The notes: generated by a model not told the origin, from the letters alone. A stretch of DNA of 64,000 nucleotides from an uncultured Gemmatimonadales bacterium (GCA_963832055.1 CAWHST010000004.1:39278-103277), one strand, 5' to 3'; shown: positions 2,774 to 52,129, numbered from the stretch's first letter. Numbers and translations: made by a program.

Positions 2774-2856
2774 CTGTCATCCCGAGCGCAGCGAGGGATC
2801 TGCCCGCAGGTCCGGAAACGTGCCGGGAGGATCCCTCGCTCCGCTCGGGATGACAG
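2774..2856. repeat. palindromic GC-rich element, copy A (tgtcatcccgagcgcagcgagggatc ... gatccctcgctccgctcgggatgaca)
   Basis: Near-perfect inverted arms of about 26 nt around a variable centre, lying between the divergent PadR and TetR genes. Same termini as the copies at 13330..13414 and 33460..33549. It produces the spurious peptide strings HPERSEGS / SLRSG in shadow ORFs. Confidence 0.85.
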
Positions 2857-12025: not shown

Positions 12026-13269
12026 TCAATCCTCTATCCGATCCGAGCGCGCATTCTCCCGTCGGGCGAGGACCAGAAACGGCATCGCCACCAGCTGAAT
12101 GCCCGCGCTCAAGACGTAGGCCGACGGATAGCCCCAGACATCGGCCGCCCGGCCCAACGCGGGCTGCGCCACCACGCCGCCGGCGGAGGCCATCAGGTTG
12201 TCGAACGAGAGGACCGTCGCTCGCTGTTGGGAGGGAATGATGCCGTTCAGGTACGCCTGCCGAATCGGGACGCCGGCGGAGAACGTGCAATCCCCACACC
12301 ACCAGGAGGGCGATCGCCACCCAGAAGCTCGAGGTCAAGCCGATCAAGCGCGAGGCAGGCGACCCCGATCAGCGAGGCCAGCATGAGCACATGGGTCCGG
12401 CGGGAAAACCAGCGGCGCGCCCGCGGCACGATCAGCCCCGCGATCATCTCGGTTCCGGCGACGATGGCCGCGGCCAGCCCCGCGATCCCGAAGGCGCGCG
12501 TATCGCCGTACAGCTCCAACAGATACGGCTGGAGGGCATAGAAGGCGAAGATGTCCACTCCCCCGGCGCACAGCGCGGCCAGCATCAGCCAGCGCACCGG
12601 TGGATTTCGCCATCCGTGGTCGAGTGAGGCCTGCACCACGCCCTTGATCTCAGCCACCGCGCTCTTGCTCCGGTCGGGCGAGAACCCGAGATCCTTCATC
12701 AGGAAGAAGGCCGCGACGAGGGTGAGTGCCAGGAGCGCCGACCGGATGACGTACGGCACGCCCAGGTCGGTCACCTGGGCGATGTAGCCGCCCGCGACCG
12801 AGCCGGTGAGCATGGCGGCGCCGCTCACGACCTGACCTCGGGCCATCACCGATTCGAGGCTCTCCTTGAAGCCGCTGAAGGCCAGGGCGTCCACCAGCCA
12901 CGCCTCGGTCGCGCCGGAGAAGAAGGTGAATCCCAGGCCGAGGAGGATGGAGGCGATGGCCCAGCCCCAGAGCGGTGCGTGCATCTTCCACATGGCCAGG
13001 TACAGGAGGGTCGAGAGGAGCAGGGTGGCGGCGCCGAGCAGGTAGGACACGCGTCTGCCCCACATGTCCGCCAGGACGCCGGTGGGGACCTCGAAGATCA
13101 CCATGCCCGCCGTGAAGAACGCGTTGGCGGCGAAGGCCTCGGCGTTGTTGAGGCCGGCGTCGAGCAGGAACAGGGTGTTGATCCCCCAGATGAACGAGGC
13201 CGCCAGGGTCGACAGCAGCGTCAGCAGGAGGTAGGTGCGCTGCACCCGGCGGGCCTGGAGGTTCATCAC
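12026..13269 (-). CDS. MFS transporter (frame corrections in the last ~300 nt)
   Basis: ORF 12247..13269 shows 10+ TM segments and the MFS motif VLADMWGRRVSY. It continues in ORF 12015..12347 (LIGLTSSFWVAIALLVVWG) and in a third frame to ...ARRENARSDRIED, ending at TGA 12026-12028 (my hand translation). Confidence 0.75.
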
Positions 13270-13329: not shown

Positions 13330-13414
13330 CTGTCATCCCGAACAAAGCGAGGGATCTTGCCCGAAGTGGTTCGAACCACTCAAAGGCAAGATCCCTCGCT
13401 TCGCTCGGGATGAC
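13330..13414. repeat. palindromic GC-rich element, copy B
   Basis: ctgtcatcccgaacaaagcgagggatcttgcc...ggcaagatccctcgcttcgctcgggatgac. It lies between the PP2C stop (13422) and the MFS start (13269). Confidence 0.85.
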
Positions 13415-13421
13415 CGGGGTG

Positions 13422-14348
13422 TTATCCCTCTTTGGGCACCGCCCGCCGCACGACCACCGTGATGTTGTCGCGGCCACCGCCGTCGAGCGCGTCCTGCAAC
13501 AGGGCCTCGCACACCTGTCTGGCCGACGTCATCGAGCGCAGCCGCTCCCGGATCCGCTCGTCCGGCACGTGGCAGGTGAGCCCGTCGCTGCACAGCAGCA
13601 CGACGGTGTCCCAGTCCAGGCCGATCCGGGTGACCGCCGGCGCGGTCTGCCTCCCGCCGATGGAGCTCGACAGCGTGTGCTCGTACCGGGTGCCCGACGC
13701 GTCGGCCCGGGTCAGCACGCCGAGATCGATCAGCTCCTGGGCCATGGTCTGGTCGCGGGTGATCTGGGTCAGCTCGCCGCCCCGGAGCAGGTAGCACCGG
13801 CTGTCGCCCACCTGGAGCAGGTAGGCCCTCGGCCAGGCGCCGAGGTACAGGGTGAGGGTCGTGGCCATGCCGCGATAGTCGGGCTCTTCCTCGCCCCGCC
13901 GCACCAGATCGGCGTGGCATTGGAGCGCCCCTTCCTGGAGCGCCTGGAAGATCTCGTGGTCGTCGGACGAGCCGGCGGCATAGTAGCAGCGCATGCTGCC
14001 CGACATGTATCGGGCCGCTCCCTCGAGCGCGATCCGGCTGGCCTCGGCGCCTTTGGTGCCGCCGCCGACGCCGTCGGCCACCATCATCAGCAGGCCGACC
14101 CGCTCGCTCTCACCCATCAGCTGGTCGGGCTCCGGCAGACTGGTGAGCTGAACCACGGTCTGCCGCCGCAGCGCGCAGACCAGGAAATGGTCCTGGTTGT
14201 CGGTACGGATTTTCCCGGGATGGGTGAGTCCGTAGATGTCGATCTCGTCGTCCCGGGGCTTTCGGTCGGGGGCGGTGGGGGGAGCGGTCAACTGCTGTGG
14301 GGTCATCGGGGCCTCCTGTGCGCAGGGGCCAGAGGGGTTCTCTGTCAA
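13422..14348 (-). CDS. PP2C-family Ser/Thr protein phosphatase (paralogue 1)
   Basis: Intact ORF. Strings GLTHPGKIRTDNQDHF, MMVADGVGGG, GMATTLT, VGDSRCYLLR, LLCSDGL, GGRDNITVVV. The true start may be the internal ATG at 14306 (MTPQQL..). Confidence 0.9.
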   Translation of the reverse strand: MTENPSGPCAQEAPMTPQQLTAPPTAPDRKPRDDEIDIYGLTHPGKIRTDNQDHFLVCALRRQTVVQLTSLPEPDQLMGESERVGLLMMVADGVGGGTKGAEASRIALEGAARYMSGSMRCYYAAGSSDDHEIFQALQEGALQCHADLVRRGEEEPDYRGMATTLTLYLGAWPRAYLLQVGDSRCYLLRGGELTQITRDQTMAQELIDLGVLTRADASGTRYEHTLSSSIGGRQTAPAVTRIGLDWDTVVLLCSDGLTCHVPDERIRERLRSMTSARQVCEALLQDALDGGGRDNITVVVRRAVPKEG

Positions 14349-27411: not shown

Positions 27412-30221
<2,810 letters not shown>

Positions 30222-31685: not shown

Positions 31686-34600
31686 ATGCCTTTATCCGGA
31701 TTCCACCCCGCCGTTGCGCGCTGGTTTGCCGAACGGCTGGGCGAGCCGACCAGGGCCCAGCGGCAGGCCTGGGAAGCAATCCGCGCCGGCCGGCACACGC
31801 TGGTCTCGGCTCCCACCGGGTCGGGTAAGACCCTCGCCGCATTTCTGATCGAGCTCGACCTGCTGCTGCGCGAGAGCCTCGCAGGCGGCCTGCCGGACGA
31901 GACGCGGGTCCTGTATGTCTCGCCCCTCAAGGCGCTGAGCGCGGACATCCACCGGAACCTGGCGGAGCCCCGGCGCGAGATCCGTCGCTTGGCGGAAGAG
32001 ATGGGATTCGACGCCCCCAGGATCACCGCGGCCGTCCGCTCCGGCGACACGCCCGCCGCCGAGCGTGCGGCCATGCTGCGGAAGCCGCCCCACATTCTCG
32101 TCACCACGCCCGAGTCGCTGTATCTCCTGCTGACCGCCCGGCGCAGCCGCGAGATGCTGCGGACGGTCCGCACCGTCATCGTGGACGAGATCCACGCGGT
32201 GCTCGAGTCGCGCCGAGGCGCCCACCTTGCCCTGAGCCTCGAGCGGCTGGCGCATGTGGCCGGCGGCCCGCTCCAGCGCATCGGCCTTTCGGCGACGATG
32301 GAGCCGATCGAGGAAGTGGCGGAGTGGCTGGTGGGAGAGACGGCGGACGGGCGGGCCGCCACCATCATCAATGAAGGCCACCGCCGAGCGCTGGACCTCG
32401 CGCTCGAGCTTCCCCGCTCACCGCTCGATTCCGTGATGTCCGGCGAGGTGTGGGCGGAGGTCTACGCCCGCCTGGCGGAGCTGATCCGGGCACACCGCAC
32501 CACGCTGGTGTTCGTCAATACTCGCCGCATGGCGGAACGGGTATCGCGTCAGCTGGCCGAGCGGCTGGGTGAGCCGGCGGTCGGCGGCGCATCACGGGAG
32601 CCTCTCGAAGGAGTCGCGACTCGACGCCGAAGAACGCCTCAAGGAGGGAAAGCTTCGGGCCCTCGTCGCCACTGCATCGCTGGAGCTGGGGATCGACATC
32701 GGCCACGTGGACCTGGTATGCCAGCTAGGGACTCCCCGGCGAATCTCGACCCTCCTCCAGCGGGTCGGGCGTTCGGGTCACACAGTGCAAGGCATGCCCA
32801 AGGGCAGGCTCTTCCCCCTCACCCGGGACGAGCTGGTGGAATCCACCGCGCTGCTCCGATCGGTCCAGGCCGGCAAGTTGGACCGGATCGCCATGCGGGA
32901 GAAGCCGCTCGACGTCCTGTCGCAGCAGCTCGTGGCCGAGAGCGCCGCCGAGGACTGGCAAGCCGACGGGCTGTTCGACCTGGTGCGCCGGGCCCATCCC
33001 TACCGCGGCCTGGAGCGGTCCGAATTCGACGAGGTGGTCGCGATGCTCTCGCGCGGCTTCGACACCCGCCGCGGACGACGGGGAGCGCTGCTCCATCACG
33101 ACACGGTCGGCGGGCGGCTGCGCGGCCGCCGGGGTGCGCGGATGATGGCCATCACTTCGGGCGGGGCGATTCCGGACAACGCCGACTACCGGGTGGTGTT
33201 GGAGCCGGAGGACACGTTCATCGGCACGGTGAACGAAGACTTCGCGGTGGAGAGCATGGCGGGAGACGTCTTCCAGCTGGGGAACCTTTCGTGGCGGATC
33301 CTGCGGGTGCAGCGCGGCGTGGTACGGGTGGAAGATGCTCGGGGGCAGCCGCCCACCATTCCGTTCTGGCTGGGCGAGGCGCCGGCGCGGAGTCCGGAGC
33401 TGTCGGCGGCGGTGGCGGAGTTGCGTGGGGAAATCGAGGACTGGCTGGAACGGGAAGCGTGTCATCCCGAGGAAGCGGAGCGACCGAGGACCTTGTCCGC
33501 CACGGTCCGAAGCAGGCGGGCAAGGTCCCTCGCTTCGCTCGGGATGACATCGCCGTTACGCAGCTCGTCACCTATCTCGCCGAGTCGCGCCGTCTGCTCG
33601 GTGCGCTCCCCACCCAGGACACCCTCATCGCCGAGCGCTTTTTCGACGAATCGGGCGGCATGCAGCTCGTCCTCCATGCCCCGTTCGGCAGCAGGGTGAA
33701 TCGCGCCTGGGGTCTCGCGCTCCGGAAGCGGTTCTGCCGCCAGTTCAACTTCGAGCTCCAGGCCGCGGCCACGGAGGACGCGGTGCTGCTGTCGCTGGGC
33801 CCGCAGCACTCCTTCCCGCTGGAGACCGTGTTCCGGTTCCTGCATCCCGACACGGTGGGCGACATTCTGGTCCAGGCGCTGCTCGACGCGCCGATGTTCG
33901 GCACCCACTGGCGCTGGAACGCGTCCATCGCGCTCGCGCTGCCGCGAAGCCGGGGCGGCCGCCGGGTGGCGCCACAGATTCAGCGGATGGAAGCCGAGGA
34001 TCTGCTCGCCGCCGCCTTCCCCGACGCGGCCGCCTGTCTGGAGAACATCCCGGGCGACCGCGAGGTCCCCGATCATCCACTGGTGCGGCAGACCATCGAC
34101 GACTGCCTGCACGAGGTGATGGATCTCGACGGCCTGATCGCAGTGCTCCGGCGGATCCACTCGGGCGAGATCCGCTGCATCGCCCGTGACCTGCCGGAGC
34201 CCTCGCCGCTGGCGCACGAGATCCTCAATGCCAGACCGTACGCGTTCCTGGACGATGCGCCGCTGGAGGAGCGACGCACCCAGGCGGTTTACACCCGGCG
34301 GGCGTTCGAACCCTCCTCGGCCGACGACCTTGGCGTGCTGGACCCGGCGGCCATCGAGCGGGTTCGAGCGGAGGCCTGGCCCGAGATCCAGCACCCGGAC
34401 GAGCTGCACGACACCCTGGTCACCTCGGGATTTCTCACCGAGGCCGAAGGCGCCCCCTGGGCCGGCTTCATGGAAGAGCTGACCGGCGCCGGCCGCGCCG
34501 CGAGAGTGGAGTCCGTCCGGCGATGGCCCGGTGCTCTGGGTCGCCACCGAGCGACTGCCCGAGGCGGCGCTGCTCTCCGATCCCGGCGCGCGTGAGCCCG

Positions 34601-36060
34601 CGGTCCGCGAGCTCCTCCGGGGCCGGCTCGGCATCATCGGCCCCACCACCGCGAGGGACCTCGCGGCGACGCTCGCCGTTCCGGAGATCGAGGCGGAGGC
34701 CGCGCTCGTCGCTCTGGAGGCCGAGGGGGTGGTGCTGCGGGGCCGGTTCACTCCGCGAGCCGGCGGCACGGCCGCGGTGCTCGAGTGGTGCGACCGCCGG
34801 CTGCTGGCGCGGATCCACCGGTACACGCTCAACCGGCTCCGCGCCGAGATCGAGCCGGTGAGCCCGGCGGACTTCATGCGATTCTTGTTCGCCTGGCAGC
34901 GAGTGGACCCGGAGCATCGGGCGTCGGGCCTCGAGGGGCTCGCCGCGGTGGTGGCGCAGCTGGATGGGTTCGAGCTTCCCGCCGCCGCCTGGGAGAGCGA
35001 TGTCCTCGCGGGTCGACTGGAGGGGTACGATCCGGCCCTGCTCGATACGTTGAGCCTCACCGGCCGCGTGGGCTGGGCGGCAGGCCAGCGGGGCAGGGGA
35101 GCGGGACCGATCCGTTCCACACCCATCGCCCTGTTCCAGAGGGAGCACGCGGGCGATTGGCTCGCCGGACGGACCAGTGAGGAAAGGCCGGCACTCCCGA
35201 GCAATGCCGCGCGCGTGCGGGAGGTCCTGGAGCAGCGCGGCGCATCGTTCTTCCACGAGCTGGTGCCGCTGTCGGGTCTCCTGCCCACTCAGGTTGAAGG
35301 CGCGCTGGGTGAGTTGGCGGGGCTGGGTCTGGTCACCTCCGACAGCTTCGCCGGGCTTCGCGCCCTGATCACCCCTTCCAGCAAGAGGAAGCCGATCAAG
35401 GGCGGCCGGCGCCGCCAGCGCACGGTGCCGTACGGAATCGAGAGCGCGGGCCGGTGGGCCTTGATCGGCCGCGGCGCAGCCGGACAGCCTGACGGCACCG
35501 ATCCAGTCGAGCACACCGCCAGGACGCTGCTCGACAGGTACGGCGTGGTGTTCAAGCGGTTGCTCGCCCGGGAAACCGGGATGCCGGCATGGCGCGAGCT
35601 GCTGCTGGCCTACCGCCGGCTGGAGGCGAGAGGTGAGATCCGGGGCGGCCGGTTCGTCTCCGGCATGTCGGGCGAGCAGTTCGCGCTGCCCGAGGCCGTC
35701 GGGAAGCTCCGGGCCATGCGCCGGCAGGAAGCCCGCGGAGGCCTGATCGCGGTGGGCGCCGCGGATCCGCTCAACCTGACCGGCATCGTCACCCCGGGCG
35801 AGCGGATCGCCACGGCCACCAGGAGCCGCATCCTCTATCGCGACGGCGTCCCGGTGCTCGCGCTGGAGCGAGGCGAGGTCAAGCCGGTCGGGCCGAGCGT
35901 CTCGGCGCCCACACCCGAGATGGTGCAGGCGCTGGTGCGGAAACAGATCGGCCCGGCGCTGCGCGCCCGACTCGCCATGGCCGGCATACCTGCCGACTCC
36001 CTACCGCCAAGCGGCCGGCCGGCGCGGCGGCGCTCGCAGAGGAAAGTAGCGAGCCACTGA
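31686..36060 (+). CDS. lhr: Lhr-type large ATP-dependent DEAH-box helicase, interrupted by a palindromic element (plus 2 homopolymer frame corrections at ~32575 and ~34525)
   Basis: Motif [10 protein letters not shown], motif II VDEIH, then [22 protein letters not shown] and QRVGRSGH. Lhr-specific middle part ([30 protein letters not shown]) and long C-terminal domain (ORF 34531..36060). The frames on either side of 33460..33548 are reconciled by deleting 89 nt. Confidence 0.85.
33460..33549. repeat. palindromic GC-rich element, copy C, inserted within the lhr reading frame
   Basis: tgtcatcccgaggaagcggagcgaccgagg...ggtccctcgcttcgctcgggatgaca. Same termini as copies A and B. The left arm is partly degenerate. 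Confidence 0.8.
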
Positions 36061-38684
36061 TGCACGAGCGCCTGGCGGCGGCACTCGCGGACCGATACAG
36101 GATCGAGCGGCAGCCGGACGGCAGCCTGACCCTCCTCGGCCGGGGCGGCACGGCGACCGTGTACCTCGCGCACGACCTCCGGCACGATCGGCCCGTCGCC
36201 CTGAAGGTGGTGCACCAGCGAGCTCGCCGAGTCGGTCGGCTCCGAGCGCTTCCTGCGCGAGATCCGCATCGTCGCCAAGCTCTCCCATCCCCATATCCTG
36301 CCGCTGTTCGACTCCGGCGAAGTGCGTCTGGGCGATGGCGACGGCGCCTCCCTTCTCTATTACGTCATGCCCTACGTCACCGGCGAGACGCTGCGCCAGC
36401 GGCTCCAGGGGCGGATGCCGGTCGCCGCCGCGATCCGGATCGCGCGGGAGGTGGCGCTGGCCCTGGACTCCGCCCATCGCCAGGGCGTGATCCACCGCGA
36501 CATCAAGCCGGAGAACATCCTGTTCGAGGACGGCCAGGCGGTCGTGGCCGACTTCGGTATCGCCACCGCCGTGGAGGGGGGCCCGGACCGGCTCACCGCC
36601 ACCGGACTCGCGGTGGGAACGCCCGCCTACATGAGTCCGGAGCAGGCGGGCGGATCGTCCACCCTCGACGGCCGGAGCGACATCTACAGCCTGGGATGCC
36701 TGCTCTACGAAATGCTCGACGGCGAGCCCCCGTTCACCGGGCCGACCCCGCAGTCGGTCATGGCGAAGCAGGTGGTCGCGCCTCCGCCTCCGCTTCGCTC
36801 CCGGCATCCCGAGATTCCGGAACCGGTCGAGCGGGTGCTCGCGAAAGCGTTGGCCAAGGAGCCGGGCGATCGCTTCTCCACGGCGGCGGAATTCGCCAGC
36901 GCTCTGGAGGCGGCCGGCGCGGCGGAGCGCCCACGGGAGAGCGGCCGCCGCCGGGCGGCCGTTCTCCTGGGCCTGGGCGCGATCGCCACGACGGGCGTGC
37001 TGTTCGCCCTGGGCCTGGGCGACCGGAAAGACCAGCCTGGCGACACGCCCAGTATCGCCGTTCTGCCGTTCGAGAACCTCGGGGCCACCGAGGACGGCTA
37101 CTTCAGCGACGGCATCACGGAGGAAATCACCAGCCGGCTGGCGATGATCCCCCGGCTCGGCGTCATCTCCCGCACCAGCGCCGATCAGTACCGGGGGACG
37201 GACAAATCGCTCAAGCAAGTGGGGCGCGAGCTCGGAGCGGACTACATCCTCGAGGGCAGCGTGAGGTGGGAGAAGTCGTCCGGGGAGCGAGCCGGGTGCG
37301 AGTCACCCCGCAGCTCATCCGCGTCTCCGACGACCACCACCTCTGGGCCGGGAGGTACGACGAGACTCTCGAAGAGGTGTTCCAGGTGCAGTCCCGCATC
37401 GCGGAACAGGTCGCCTCCGCCCTGGACCTCGCGCTCCAGCGCCCCGAGCAGGAGGCGCTCGCCGCCAAGCCGACCGAGGACCTCCGGGCCTACGACTTCT
37501 ATCTCCGCGGGAACGATTACCTCGACCGGCCGGGGGACCCCGACGCACTCCGCACGGCCGAAGAGATGTACACCAAGGCCACCGAGCTGGATCCCACCTT
37601 CGCGCTCGCCTTCGCGCGGCTGGCCCGGGCTCGCATCTGGCAGTTTCACTTCTCGGAGCGGACCGGCGAGCGGCTCGCCCAGGCGCGGAGTGCCGCCGAC
37701 TCCGCGCTGCGGCTTCAGCCCGGGCTGCCGGAGGCGCACCTCGCGCTGGGGCAGATCTACTACTGGGGCCAGCTCGACTACCCCGCGGCGCTGCGGGAGT
37801 TCCGCACCGCTCACGCCGGCGATCCCGGCAACGGTGACATCTCGTGGGCCCGCGGACTGGTCGAGCGGCGCATGGGCCAATGGGACCAGGCGATAACGGA
37901 TCTGCGCCGGGCGGTGGATCTGGACCCGAGGTCGGTGGTCAAGTCTCTGGACCTGTTCGAGGTGTATGTCAGGCGGCGGGACTACCCGCAGGCGGAACGC
38001 TACCTCAAGCGCGCCATGGTATTGGAGCCCGACTCGCCGGCCTCCATCTTCGAGGCGCAGCTCATCGTCGCGCGCGACGGCGATCTGAAGGCGGCAGCCG
38101 CCGCTCTCAAGGAAGGGGTTCGCAGGGCGGGCCTCGACGACATCGTCGCCTGGGCCCCGACATTCGATCTCGGCGCCGCCCTGTGGGGGACCCTGGATAG
38201 TTCCGCGCAGGCGGCGGGAGACCGGCTCTCGGTGGCCTCATTCGGGGTGGACTCCGCCGGCTATTATCTGGCGAAAGCCAGGGTCCGCAGGTACCGGGGC
38301 GACGCTACGAGCAAGGTCTACTTCGACTCCGCGGCGACGGTCCTCGAGGCCGGGACCCAGGCCCGGCCGGACGACCCCACGCTCAGGGCCGAGCTGGCCT
38401 ACGCCTATGCCGGGCTCGGCCGCCGCGAGCCCGCCATCCGGGAGGGCCTGCGCGCGGTGCAGCTGCGGCCCCCTTCCAAGGACACCTGGCTCGGGGTGGA
38501 CATGGTTCGCAATCTGGCGGTGGTGTACGTCATGCTGGGTGAGGCCGACTCGGCGGTGCAGCAGCTCCGGGTGCTGCTGTCGGTTCCCTCGTGGATCTCC
38601 GTGCCCGGGCTCCGGGCCGATCCGACGTGGGATCCCATTCGGCGGGATCCCGGTTTCCAGGCGCTCCTGAAGCGCGGGGGGTGA
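36060..38684 (+). CDS. Ser/Thr protein kinase with TM segment, periplasmic domain and TPR region (STK2; two frame corrections ~36225 and ~37290)
   Basis: The ATG overlaps the lhr TGA. Strings RYRIER..GGTATVYLAHDLRHDRPVALKV, HRDIKPENILF, DFGIA, MSPEQ. TM segment (AAVLLGLGAIATTGVLFAL). Then IAVLPFENLGATEDGYFSDGITEEITSRL and TPR-like repeats to ...DPGFQALLKRGG. Confidence 0.85.
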   Translation: MHERLAAALADRYRIERQPDGSLTLLGRGGTATVYLAHDLRHDRPVALKVVHQRARRVGRLRALPARDPHRRQALPSPYPAAVRLRRSASGRWRRRLPSLLRHALRHRRDAAPAAPGADAGRRRDPDRAGGGAGPGLRPSPGRDPPRHQAGEHPVRGRPGGRGRLRYRHRRGGGPGPAHRHRTRGGNARLHESGAGGRIVHPRRPERHLQPGMPALRNARRRAPVHRADPAVGHGEAGGRASASASLPASRDSGTGRAGARESVGQGAGRSLLHGGGIRQRSGGGRRGGAPTGERPPPGGRSPGPGRDRHDGRAVRPGPGRPERPAWRHAQYRRSAVREPRGHRGRLLQRRHHGGNHQPAGDDPPARRHLPHQRRSVPGDGQIAQASGARARSGLHPRGQREVGEVVRGASRVRVTPQLIRVSDDHHLWAGRYDETLEEVFQVQSRIAEQVASALDLALQRPEQEALAAKPTEDLRAYDFYLRGNDYLDRPGDPDALRTAEEMYTKATELDPTFALAFARLARARIWQFHFSERTGERLAQARSAADSALRLQPGLPEAHLALGQIYYWGQLDYPAALREFRTAHAGDPGNGDISWARGLVERRMGQWDQAITDLRRAVDLDPRSVVKSLDLFEVYVRRRDYPQAERYLKRAMVLEPDSPASIFEAQLIVARDGDLKAAAAALKEGVRRAGLDDIVAWAPTFDLGAALWGTLDSSAQAAGDRLSVASFGVDSAGYYLAKARVRRYRGDATSKVYFDSAATVLEAGTQARPDDPTLRAELAYAYAGLGRREPAIREGLRAVQLRPPSKDTWLGVDMVRNLAVVYVMLGEADSAVQQLRVLLSVPSWISVPGLRADPTWDPIRRDPGFQALLKRGG

Positions 38685-38800
38685 GCGCAGGCCGCCGGGC
38701 CGTCACATTCCGGCTTGGTTGTGGGTTCCTCCTGGGGCGGATCTGGCTGGGTCACGCCCTGTGTCCGGAACTCACGTCACCACTCTCCGCCGGAGGCCCC

Positions 38801-49240: not shown

Positions 49241-52129
49241 GCTGAAGGCCGCTCTGGCCGGAACCTATCGGATCGAGCGCGAGCTCGGCTCCGGCGGCAT
49301 GGCCACCGTGTACCTCGCGCGGGATCTTCGGCACGACCGAGACGTGGCGATCAAGGTGATGCTGCCGAAAGTGGCGGCCGCGCTCTCCCCCGAGCGGTTC
49401 CTCCAGGAAATCCACATCGCGGCCCAGTTGCAGCACCCCCTCATCCTTCCGCTCTTCGATTCGGGACAGGCCGACGAGCTCTACTACTACGTCATGCCTC
49501 GGATCGTCGGGGAGTCACTCCGGCAGCGACTGCTTCGGGAGAAGCGTCTTCCGCTGGCGGAGGCGGTCCAGATCGGGCGCGAGATCGCCGAGGCGCTCGA
49601 GTATGCCCACGGCAAAGGCGTGGTCCATCGCGATATCAAGCCCGAGAACATCATGCTCACCGGCGGTCACCCGCTGGTGGCCGATTTCGGCATCGCCCGG
49701 GCGCTCGGCGTCTCCGGGGACGAGAGGCTGACGTCCACCGGAATGCGGTTCGGCACGCCGCTCTATATGAGTCCGGAGCAGGCGTTGGGCGACCCCGGGC
49801 TCGACGCCCGCAGCGACATCTACTCGCTGGGCTGCGTGATCTATGAGATGATCGGCGGCTCGCCGCCCTACACCGGGGCCAGCCTGCACGCCGTCCTCTC
49901 CGGGCACGTGGCGGGCAAGTTGCCGCCGCTGACCACCCAGCGAATCGGCATTCCCGCCGGACTCCGGGCCACGGTCGAGACCGCCCTGGCCCGGGAGCCG
50001 GCGGATCGTTTCCAGACCGCCGAGGAATTCGCGCGGGCGCTGGCCGACCCGTCCTGGTCCGGCAGCAGCCGCCGGCGTTGGACTCCCGTGCTCGGGCAAC
50101 GGCGCTCGGACGAATCGGACTCGGGCGAGTTGCGGTCACCGTGGCGGCCGGTGGCGCTGTCATCGTGGCTGCCTGGGCCATGTGGTCGCGGTTGAGCCCG
50201 CGTCCGGCGCTGGATTCCAATCTCGTTGCGGTCGCGCCGTTCGACGCGTTGGGGCCGGGCCTCGAGCTCTGGCGCGAGGGGCTGATGGACATGCTGTCCC
50301 GCAACCTCAACGGCGCGGGGCCTCTTCGGGTGGTATCACCTACGGTCGTGGCCCGTAACTGGTCCGGTCGAGCTGACATCGCCTCGGCGCGGCAGGTGGG
50401 CCTCGAGACCGGGGCCGGGCTCAGCGTGGTCGGGTCCATCGTGGCCGCCGGACCGGATTCGGTGCGGCTCGCGGTCACGGTGGTAGACGTCGCCACCGCG
50501 GAGCCGCTGGGTGATGTGGAATTCGGGGGAGCGGTTTCGCGGATGGACGTCGCCGTGGATTCGCTCACGATGGGCCTGCTCGCCGCGCTCGCCCGGACCC
50601 GCCAGATCGGCGCCGTCCACCTCGGCGCTACCCGGTCGAGCTCGCTCCCGGCCCTCAAGGCCTATCTGCAGGGGGAGCAGTATTTCCGCCGGGCCGAATG
50701 GGATGCGGCACAAAGAGATTTCGAGCGCGCCGCGAGCCTCGACCCGAACTTCGCTCTCGCGTTCTACCGGATCTTTCAGACCCGTTTCTACAAGGGCACC
50801 GGGCGCGACTCACTGATGTGGTCCTACGCTCTCCGGGCGGGCGAGCTGAACCGGGGACTGGCGCCTCGGGAGAGCCTGATGATCGCGGCGGACTCCCTCC
50901 TGGCCGCCGTCAGCGACGCCCCTGCCCTGGACGCCGAAGCCCAGCGCCACCGGAAGCGGGTCTTCGCGATCCTGGAGCTGGCCAATCGACGGTTTCCCGA
51001 GGACGCAGAGGTCTGGTACCAACTGGGCCGTGCCCGAGCCCGGATCGGGTACTTGATCGGCGTGCAGCCGGAGCAGGCGCTGCAGGCGCTGGACCGCGCC
51101 ATCGTACTCGACTCCTCTTTCGCGCCCGCGTACGTGGAGGCGTTCGCCTTCTCGACTGTGGCGAGAGGGCAGGAAGCAACCCGGCGGTATCTGAAGGCGT
51201 ACCTGGCGGTCGCTCCGAAAGGCATCCTGGCGGACGTGGCCCGGCTCGCTCTCGACCTAATGGATCCGAGACGCTCCGGGTCCGACGCCGTGGCCAGCAC
51301 GCTGGATACAGCCTCGGCCCGGATGCTCTATCACACGGCGAACATCTTCGAGTACGCCGCCGACTCCACCGAGACTTACATTCGCCTCGGACGCCACCTG
51401 GTGGAGCGCGCTCCCGATCCCAGCCTCGCGGCCGACCCGGCTCTGCCCCGCCGGGTGCTCGGCTTCGGCCTCGCGTTCCGGGGACACATGGCCGAAGCGC
51501 TGCGCATCCTCGGAACCGACCGGCTCTACCTCGTCTCCCAGGCCGCGGCGCTCGGTGGGATGCCGCGTGACAGCGCGAGGGCGGTGTTCGATCCGCTGCT
51601 TCGCGACGACCCCGCGCCGCTGGCTGATTTGGTCTTCGCCCTGCCGTGGTGGTCGAAGGAGCGCGATACCAGCGCGCTCAGCCGCGCCATAGACCTCGCC
51701 GGCCGGCAAGCGAAGCGGGTGCCCACGGCCCGGTTTCTTGCCGAGGCTGCTCGAGCCTGGCACACTCTTGCCGTCGGCGACAGCGTCGCGGCGCTCAGCC
51801 AGTTTCTGCAGCTGCCGGATTTCCCGAACTACTCCGGCATCGGCGACTGGGAGCGCTACACGGCGATCCGTCTCCTCAACGACGCCGGCCGCTTCCATGA
51901 GGCGCGCACCCGGCTCGACCGCGAGATCCCGAGCACGGCGTTCCCCTGGGACGTCGTGCTCTTGCTGGAACGGGCTCGTGCCATGGAGGGGCTCGGGCAA
52001 CCCACCGTGGCGGCGGATCAGTACGCCCGGGTCGCCGATCTGTGGGCGAGAGGCGATTCGGCACTGCAACCCCTCGTCTCCTCGGCTCGGGCCGCTTCCC
52101 TGCGACTGCGCCGGGCCGGTGGCCCCTAG
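49224..52129 (+). CDS. Ser/Thr protein kinase with TM segment, periplasmic domain and TPR-like region (STK3; one frame correction ~50090)
   Basis: GTG 49224. Strings TYRIERELGSGGMATVYLARDLRHDRDVAIKV, HRDIKPENIM, DFGIAR, MSPEQ. TM segment in ORF 50078.. (VAVTVAAGGAVIVAAWAMW), then LVAVAPFDALG.. and helical repeats to TAG 52127-52129. Confidence 0.85.

Follow-up and report, generated by a model that had tools for sequence, protein, structure and literature searches.

The in-frame translation of palindromic repeats within proteins is known mainly from Rickettsia, and Coxiella and the enterobacteria provide a few further cases. The Rickettsia palindromic elements (RPEs) are, in the summary of Ogata et al. 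2000 given in PMC10969869, short palindromic repeats which lie in frame within unrelated genes, are read through and appear to be tolerated. Repetitive extragenic palindromes (REPs) and REPINs, mobilised by RAYT transposases (PMC3337134, PMC3733652), consist of two inverted GC-rich units and a spacer which form one hairpin, and are present in high copy number. One end of a REP has a conserved tetranucleotide, GTAG or CGTC (PMC3733652). In-frame MITEs (miniature transposable elements with inverted repeats), such as Coxiella QMITE1, intragenic ERIC and large BOX (PMC5896051, PMC10969869), are non-autonomous, have terminal inverted repeats and insert peptides in frame. A palindromic repeat, termed copy C, was analyzed within the lhr (large helicase-related) gene of a 64,000 nucleotide stretch of DNA from an uncultured Gemmatimonadales bacterium (GCA_963832055.1 CAWHST010000004.1:39278-103277). 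The whole stretch is referred to as the window. With a probability of about 80%, copy C is a translated repeat residing in a variable linker of Lhr, the frame break associated with it is a likely assembly error, and its family is present across the clade in both orientations.

The window element resembles the RPEs in being a multicopy palindrome (three copies, A, B and C, in 64 kb compared to 0 expected) with in-frame copies in unrelated proteins, namely two loops of Lhr, the Peptidase_M19 protein P0128 and the Met_synt_B12 protein P0210. It differs in its host, a free-living soil Gemmatimonadales of 70% GC, and in its size of approximately 75 to 115 nt compared to approximately 100 to 150 bp for RPEs. 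Unlike the RPEs, and new here, are the repeated use of one and the same linker throughout a clade, the occurrence of both orientations at one junction and the tandem copies. By analogy the element probably works like an RPE, and is set beside the RPEs by its behavior and not as a member. The Rickettsia parallel drawn in a preliminary description of the sequence holds as a way of working. The REP and REPIN organization of paired inverted units is also shared, and neither copy A nor copy B lies in an identified gene, B being demonstrably intergenic. However, the arms of the family start with TGTC or GGTC and lack the GTAG or CGTC tag, and REPs are by definition extragenic while copy C is coding. 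The element shares with the in-frame MITEs its non-autonomous nature, its terminal inverted repeats and its in-frame peptide insertion, but differs in having no visible target-site duplication at any window copy. No shared direct repeat flanked copies A, B and C or the orthologous copies.

Copy C has the full sequence TGTCATCCCGAGGAAGCGGAGCGACCGAGGACCTTGTCCGCCACGGTCCGAAGCAGGCGGGCAAGGTCCCTCGCTTCGCTCGGGATGACA (window 33460-33549) and is an imperfect palindrome with terminal inverted repeats at its ends (TGTCATCCCGAG...CTCGGGATGACA). The outer arms of 26 nt are 77% complementary and the inner arms of 14 nt are 93% complementary. As single-stranded DNA it folds with an energy of -35.4 kcal/mol (z = -7.2), which was equaled by 0 of 200 shuffled sequences. 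The z-scores of the three hairpins of the window ranged from -7 to -12. Membership of a repeat family, as first proposed from the sequence, was borne out. A 22-nt arm motif occurred five times in the 64-kb window (up to 3 mismatches) compared to 0.00 expected, and a hidden Markov model (HMM) of the arm found exactly six arms, making up the three elements. The left arm of copy C is of the same type as those of locus L162, which encodes P0005 (CHPEGAQRPRDL), and of L165, which encodes P0013. Two of the three frames of copy C are stop-free in either orientation, while the third ends in TGA both ways. Read-through is easy because of these stop-free frames and the high GC content. No known RNA family was found in an Rfam scan of 33300-33700 (E up to 10), which returned only sub-threshold plant microRNA hairpin look-alikes.

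The host gene is a full-length member of the Lhr family with Lhr-Core and C-terminal domain (CTD) regions. The repaired protein matched the Pfam families DEAD, Helicase_C, WH_Lhr, DEAD_assoc, WH3_Lhr, and WH4_Lhr, and the Lhr flanks of copy C matched the M. smegmatis structures 7lhl and 5v9x with an E value of about 1e-160. The last upstream Lhr codon, GCG, ends at 33459 (...EDWLEREA) in the frame of the open reading frame (ORF) 32569..33699. Good Lhr sequence resumes with ATC at 33549 (IAVTQ...) in the frame of ORF 31686..34595. The spacing of 89 nt places the two in different frames. These ORF frames, together with the Pfam and structure matches, confirmed the earlier observation of a palindrome inside lhr with 89 nt between two good Lhr frames. 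The preliminary description mentioned the break at copy C. Two further single-base breaks are present (approximately 32583-32585 and 34520), giving the four frame segments 31686-32582, 32584-33459, 33549 to approximately 34517, and approximately 34522 to 36060.

The frame break at copy C is best accounted for if a GGG run in the left arm lacks one G, because the right arm of the window copy, the alignment with orthologues and the length of the full copies all point to this base. Pairing with the right arm of copy C, GGTCCCTC, requires GAGGGACC in the left arm. In a MAFFT alignment with four orthologues the sole gap of the window lies at CGA-GGACC, where the other four read CGAGGGA(T/G)C. Counted from T to A, the full copies of L162, L166, and L168 have 91 nt and the window copy has 90 nt. 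In an RNAalifold alignment of 12 copies, stem pair 29-105 was gapped in the window sequence only; changes on both sides of the stem were seen in at least one sequence at 5 of the 24 stem pairs. With the G restored the whole palindrome measures 91 nt and the Lhr codons are separated by 90 nt, encoding an in-frame insert of 30 amino acids which resembles that of P0005, CHPEGAQRPRDLARAFPEPAGKIPHSARDD, and is followed by IAVTQ... The most likely source of this loss is an error in the assembly or consensus. The 30-amino acid in-frame insertion foreseen in the preliminary description was upheld. The peptide given for it was rejected, as it stays in the upstream frame throughout and is incorrect after residue 10, the missing base being in the left arm.

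Two sets of sequences were used for comparison. The 120 best Lhr homologues were all Gemmatimonadales-like and 69 to 96% identical to the window Lhr. A listing of loci, mostly from distant phyla with few close relatives, served as the baseline for element-free linkers. Orthologous DNA was available for P0005 (L162), P0002 (L163), P0004 (L164), P0013 (L165), P0006 (L166), P0008 (L167), and P0007 (L168), as well as for loci L082 and L002. In L002, L082, and L162-L168 the number of nucleotides from TGT to GAC is divisible by three, and this stretch reads CHPE...RDD. Among approximately 165 loci, the distance from FW to ERFFDE is a multiple of three wherever both anchors were found, except in the window (269 nt). 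A true length that keeps the frame, as had been suggested, is thus strongly supported by both the restored base and the orthologues.

Peptides derived from the arms were found at the same linker in at least 39 of the 120 best homologues, and several more carried remnants. In the immediate clade (P0001-P0008) every member has element-derived sequence at the linker. The element is accordingly resident across the clade, and was not acquired by the window strain alone as an insertion for which close relatives would show the empty site. The FW to ERFFDE stretch spans 66 to 134 amino acids in Lhr of many phyla, typically 74 to 77, among the loci listed. It typically holds a conserved helix, DRxxAxxWVxxLL (also DRxxAxxWLxx), and this includes many Gemmatimonadales Lhr. 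The corresponding linker of the window is 60 amino acids without the element and 90 with it. An element-free site of 60 amino acids was found in no relative examined; the nearest relatives have remnants or full copies. Excision of the 89 nt therefore rejoins the frame, as previously stated, but does not restore the ancestral gene, because the resulting linker is 60 amino acids compared to the typical 74 to 77. Comparison of the linkers indicates that the native helix was replaced by repeat-derived sequence in the subclade of the window.

Only a 14-amino acid remnant is retained in P0001 (FHLEGSEGASRPAD) and in P0272 (SHPEQSDEASRPAD), each with an identity of 90% or more to the window Lhr. Window 33437-33561 and positions 11751-11816 of L001, the locus of P0001, form an unalignable island amid 95 to 96% identity. 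The divergence reaches approximately 25 nt upstream and approximately 12 nt downstream of the element, and the linker may have undergone allelic replacement or recombination. Other linkers showed further variation. In L165 (3601-3665; P0013) a 21-nt unit which includes the last bases of the element is present three times in tandem after it, encoding DSEQLVA three times. The linkers of L164 (P0004) and L162 (P0005) have an extra partial right end (CTCGAGATGAC or CGGGATGAC) a few bases past the full element, which looks like a second copy landing beside the first.

When the window Lhr is aligned with that of M. smegmatis, the insert is positioned between LDRKAF (approximately residue 628) and ATDNLHQLL (approximately 642), where the M. 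smegmatis protein contains a connector of its own, DKRCQKMGFAGY. The site belongs to domain 4 (amino acids 530-856) and lies about 30 residues past the PFW tryptophan, between the helix that follows this residue and the next helix. The PFW tryptophan is Trp597 by residue count. Trp597 of M. smegmatis Lhr is reported to stack on the first duplex nucleoside (PMC5758891, PMC8053096). Like the window Lhr, those of M. smegmatis and E. coli described in the same papers are full-length proteins with Lhr-Core and CTD. The characterized proteins have a native connector of 12 to 14 amino acids and no repeat-derived loop, whereas the window Lhr has a repeat-derived one.

Taken together, copy C would be a non-autonomous, imperfect-palindromic repeat of approximately 91 bp, with a MITE- or REPIN-like organization and a mode of movement that we infer. 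It would reside in the length-variable domain 4 linker about 30 residues past the conserved FW tryptophan. In living cells it would be transcribed and translated within Lhr, translation in the window strain being presumed, adding a loop of 30 amino acids rich in Pro, Gly, Arg, and Asp between two helices. It is presumably tolerated as a loop at the protein surface. Its persistence may be due to a site which tolerates almost any length and to the two stop-free frames of three in either orientation. RPE-like behavior is thereby extended to free-living, GC-rich Gemmatimonadales, where it affects a DNA-repair helicase at two loops as well as other enzymes. Such elements provide a natural experiment on where in a protein arbitrary insertions of 25 to 35 amino acids are tolerated, and an example of selfish DNA feeding protein length variation.

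The element was found in both orientations. The long arm is on the left in the window, L162, L164, and L165, and on the right in L163, L166, L167, L168, and L082. The window copy and that of L166 are identical at 79 of 91 positions when one is reverse complemented, compared to 68 of 91 directly. The reverse complement of the repaired window copy translates to 30 amino acids close to those of P0006. The junctions are identical to the nucleotide in the window, L166, and L167 (...GAACGGGA(A/G)NNN|TGTCAT...ATGACA|TCGC(C/T)G). The arms of L166 and L168 are identical, while their 25-nt loops match at 23 of 25 positions as reverse complements and at 16 of 25 directly. The simplest reading of both orientations at one junction would be an in-place inversion between the element's own inverted repeats. 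On this basis we tentatively propose, at somewhat less than even odds, that the element is a translated invertible palindrome whose flips rewrite a surface loop of the helicase while keeping the frame, giving the forms CHPE-E/GA-RPRDL...IPRFARDD and CHPERSEGS..., and that it belongs to a family in soil bacteria of several phyla which generates variation in protein loops. If confirmed, in-place inversion would be a way of changing a coding loop for which no description was found in the literature searched.

The two orientations could also have arisen by repeated independent insertions at the same nucleotide, due to a preference for the target or for a pre-existing copy. Full copies, half copies and empty linkers alternate in a patchy pattern over the Lhr tree, the extra right ends of L164 and L162 lie just downstream of full copies, and a second Lhr loop has also been colonized. 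Separate insertions are nevertheless unlikely given the nucleotide-identical junctions of the window, L166, and L167 and the match between the window and L166 copies in reverse complement. They are also unable to explain the identical arms of L166 and L168 on either side of an inverted loop.

The quality of the window sequence was assessed against L001, which is syntenic with window 21660-43106 at a nucleotide identity of 95 to 96%. Its protein P0001 is the closest public homologue, intact at 1,437 amino acids and 96% identical to the window Lhr. Eighteen frame-shifting indels relative to L001 were found in approximately 20 kb of coding sequence. These affected nine genes, all intact in L001, among them the Ser/Thr kinase genes flanking lhr (27412.. 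and 36060..). The indels were mostly single bases and several lay within short G or C runs. The window is thus better regarded as an indel-rich consensus sequence than as a run of pseudogenes. An assembly error is indicated at copy C because lhr has three such breaks and the neighboring genes have many. The earlier statement that copy C splits lhr is therefore correct for the sequence as deposited, while the split itself is probably an artifact, in view of the 18 indels and the GGG site. In practice, assemblies lose bases at such hairpins and annotators split the genes, as in the public record of lhr.

A real deletion of one base, with the palindrome as a mutational hot spot and lhr either a recently inactivated pseudogene or expressed as fragments, was also considered. 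Hairpins and G-runs are plausible sites of slippage. The gene had been described as essential-looking, but a viable lhr deletion mutant of M. smegmatis is reported in PMC9841417, and Lhr is thus dispensable in that species. The deposited gene is in four frame segments. Three further points weigh against an assembly error in a translated loop. The public annotation of the source contig gives lhr in pieces, with P0271, a C-terminal piece of only 443 amino acids, encoded exactly at 34729-36060. Extra bases account for 15 of the 18 indels relative to L001, and a missing base, as needed in copy C, is less common (3 of 18). The AlphaFold2 model obtained for the repaired winged-helix (WH) and domain 4 fragment was poor (mean predicted local distance difference test, pLDDT, of 53), with the insert as a low-confidence coil between two helices. 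Mapping onto the Lhr structure, which had been suggested earlier, placed the insert in domain 4 between helices in the 7lhl alignment, and its location at the surface is presumed. A real deletion is still distinctly improbable. The same logic would make pseudogenes of at least nine neighboring genes (18 indels in approximately 20 kb), for which assembly error is a far better fit. All four segments of lhr have a ratio of non-synonymous to synonymous changes (pN/pS) of 0.08 to 0.13 relative to L001 with zero in-frame stops, including downstream of each break, and all other loci examined are in frame.

It was also considered that the segment is simply the native linker of Lhr, with the intergenic copies as lookalikes or derivatives and no insertion. 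Many orthologues do have homologous residues here, which the preliminary description had taken as a sign against an insertion. Formally this is so, yet these residues are element copies in their own right, and Lhr of other phyla and of many Gemmatimonadales is without them and has the conserved helix DRxxAxxWVxxLL instead. The same palindrome is found in intergenic copy B, at the flanks of lhr in Verrucomicrobia (L045 and L062) and in unrelated proteins, and it occurs in both orientations. A native linker is thus very improbable, and was rejected on the basis of element-free Lhr elsewhere and the palindrome outside lhr. Programmed -1 ribosomal frameshifting stimulated by the hairpin, which is strong and stands where the change of frame could be bridged by a -1 slip, was likewise rejected and deserves almost no credence, as no slippery heptamer was found 5-9 nt upstream of the stem, the relatives examined are all in frame with no orthologue needing a frameshift, and the other breaks in lhr and in neighboring genes are without such a structure.

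Table 1. Coordinates of lhr, of copy C with its parts and frame breaks, and of the other repeat copies in the window.
Feature	Position	Strand	Details
lhr (large helicase-related)	31686..36060	+	approximately 1,458 amino acids once repaired; four frame segments as sequenced
First lhr frame break	32583..32585	+	one extra base in GTCGGCGGCG compared to intact L001
Palindromic repeat copy C	33460..33549	+	90 nt as sequenced; full orthologous copies 91 nt
Left arm, long type	33460..33495	+	TGTCATCCCGAGGAAGCGGAGCGACCGAGG(G)ACCTTG; 12 residues when translated in frame
Missing-G site (the frame break itself)	33488..33490	+	GAGG-ACC in the window where GAGGGACC is expected
Central 25-nt loop	33496..33520	+	inner stem TCCGCC...GGCGGG
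Right arm, short type	33521..33549	+	CAAGGTCCCTCGCTTCGCTCGGGATGACA; KVPRFARDD in the downstream Lhr frame
Third lhr frame break	34517..34520	+	extra G in TCCGTCCG[G]CGATGG; removal gives a P0272-like peptide
Repeat copy A	2775..2855		short arm on both sides; flanking ORFs without Pfam match
Repeat copy B	13331..13415		short arm on both sides; intergenic

Beyond copy C, the arms of the family occur in a short form, GTCATCCCGAGCGAAGCGAGGGATC, and a long form, GTCATCCCGAGGGAGCGCAGCGACCGAGGGATC. Fourteen of 20 aligned arms start with TGTC, the remainder mostly with GGTC, and one of 20 with CGTC. Copy B is flanked by two minus-strand genes, with the stop of a PP2C phosphatase gene (13422..14348) on one side and the start of an MFS transporter gene (12247..13269) on the other. 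In Lhr itself the family is present at a second variable loop, after residue 216 (WLVG...IIN), in P0002, P0007, P0015, P0021, P0049, and P0104. In P0002-P0055 the loops after query residues 216, 1102, and 1240 also contain recurrent SAVPPFRRSAV, STVNSERALPDPSRLPFTVHRSPA, and GRTDGQTDGRT-type runs, which may be translations of other repeat families.

With a profile of the insert peptides, matches at E up to 1e-3 were obtained to 166 of 1.84 billion representative proteins, mostly short ORFs crossing arrays of the element. The Peptidase_M19 domain of P0128 is interrupted by two or three tandem in-frame copies, and the Met_synt_B12 domain of P0210 contains one in-frame copy. The related copies in Verrucomicrobia L045 and L062 flank lhr. 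A word-index protein search with a concatenated 60-amino acid peptide gave one match. Full-text literature queries with the arm sequences and VILSEAK returned unrelated primer matches only, and among the papers listed nothing relevant was found tying Gemmatimonas or Gemmatimonadota to REP or MITE. Many public proteins such as P0122-P0127, of 50 to 440 amino acids, are pure read-through of tandem repeat arrays, with CHPERSEGS every 20 to 70 residues, and are probably spurious gene calls.

Two further insertions relative to L001 were seen in the window, one of 44 nt at the start of a kinase gene (27491-27534) and one of 40 nt in an intergenic region (38730-38769). Positions 36135-36775 and 49284-49911 are direct repeats a constant distance of approximately 13.14 kb apart and 72 to 77% identical, and correspond to paralogous Ser/Thr kinase genes.

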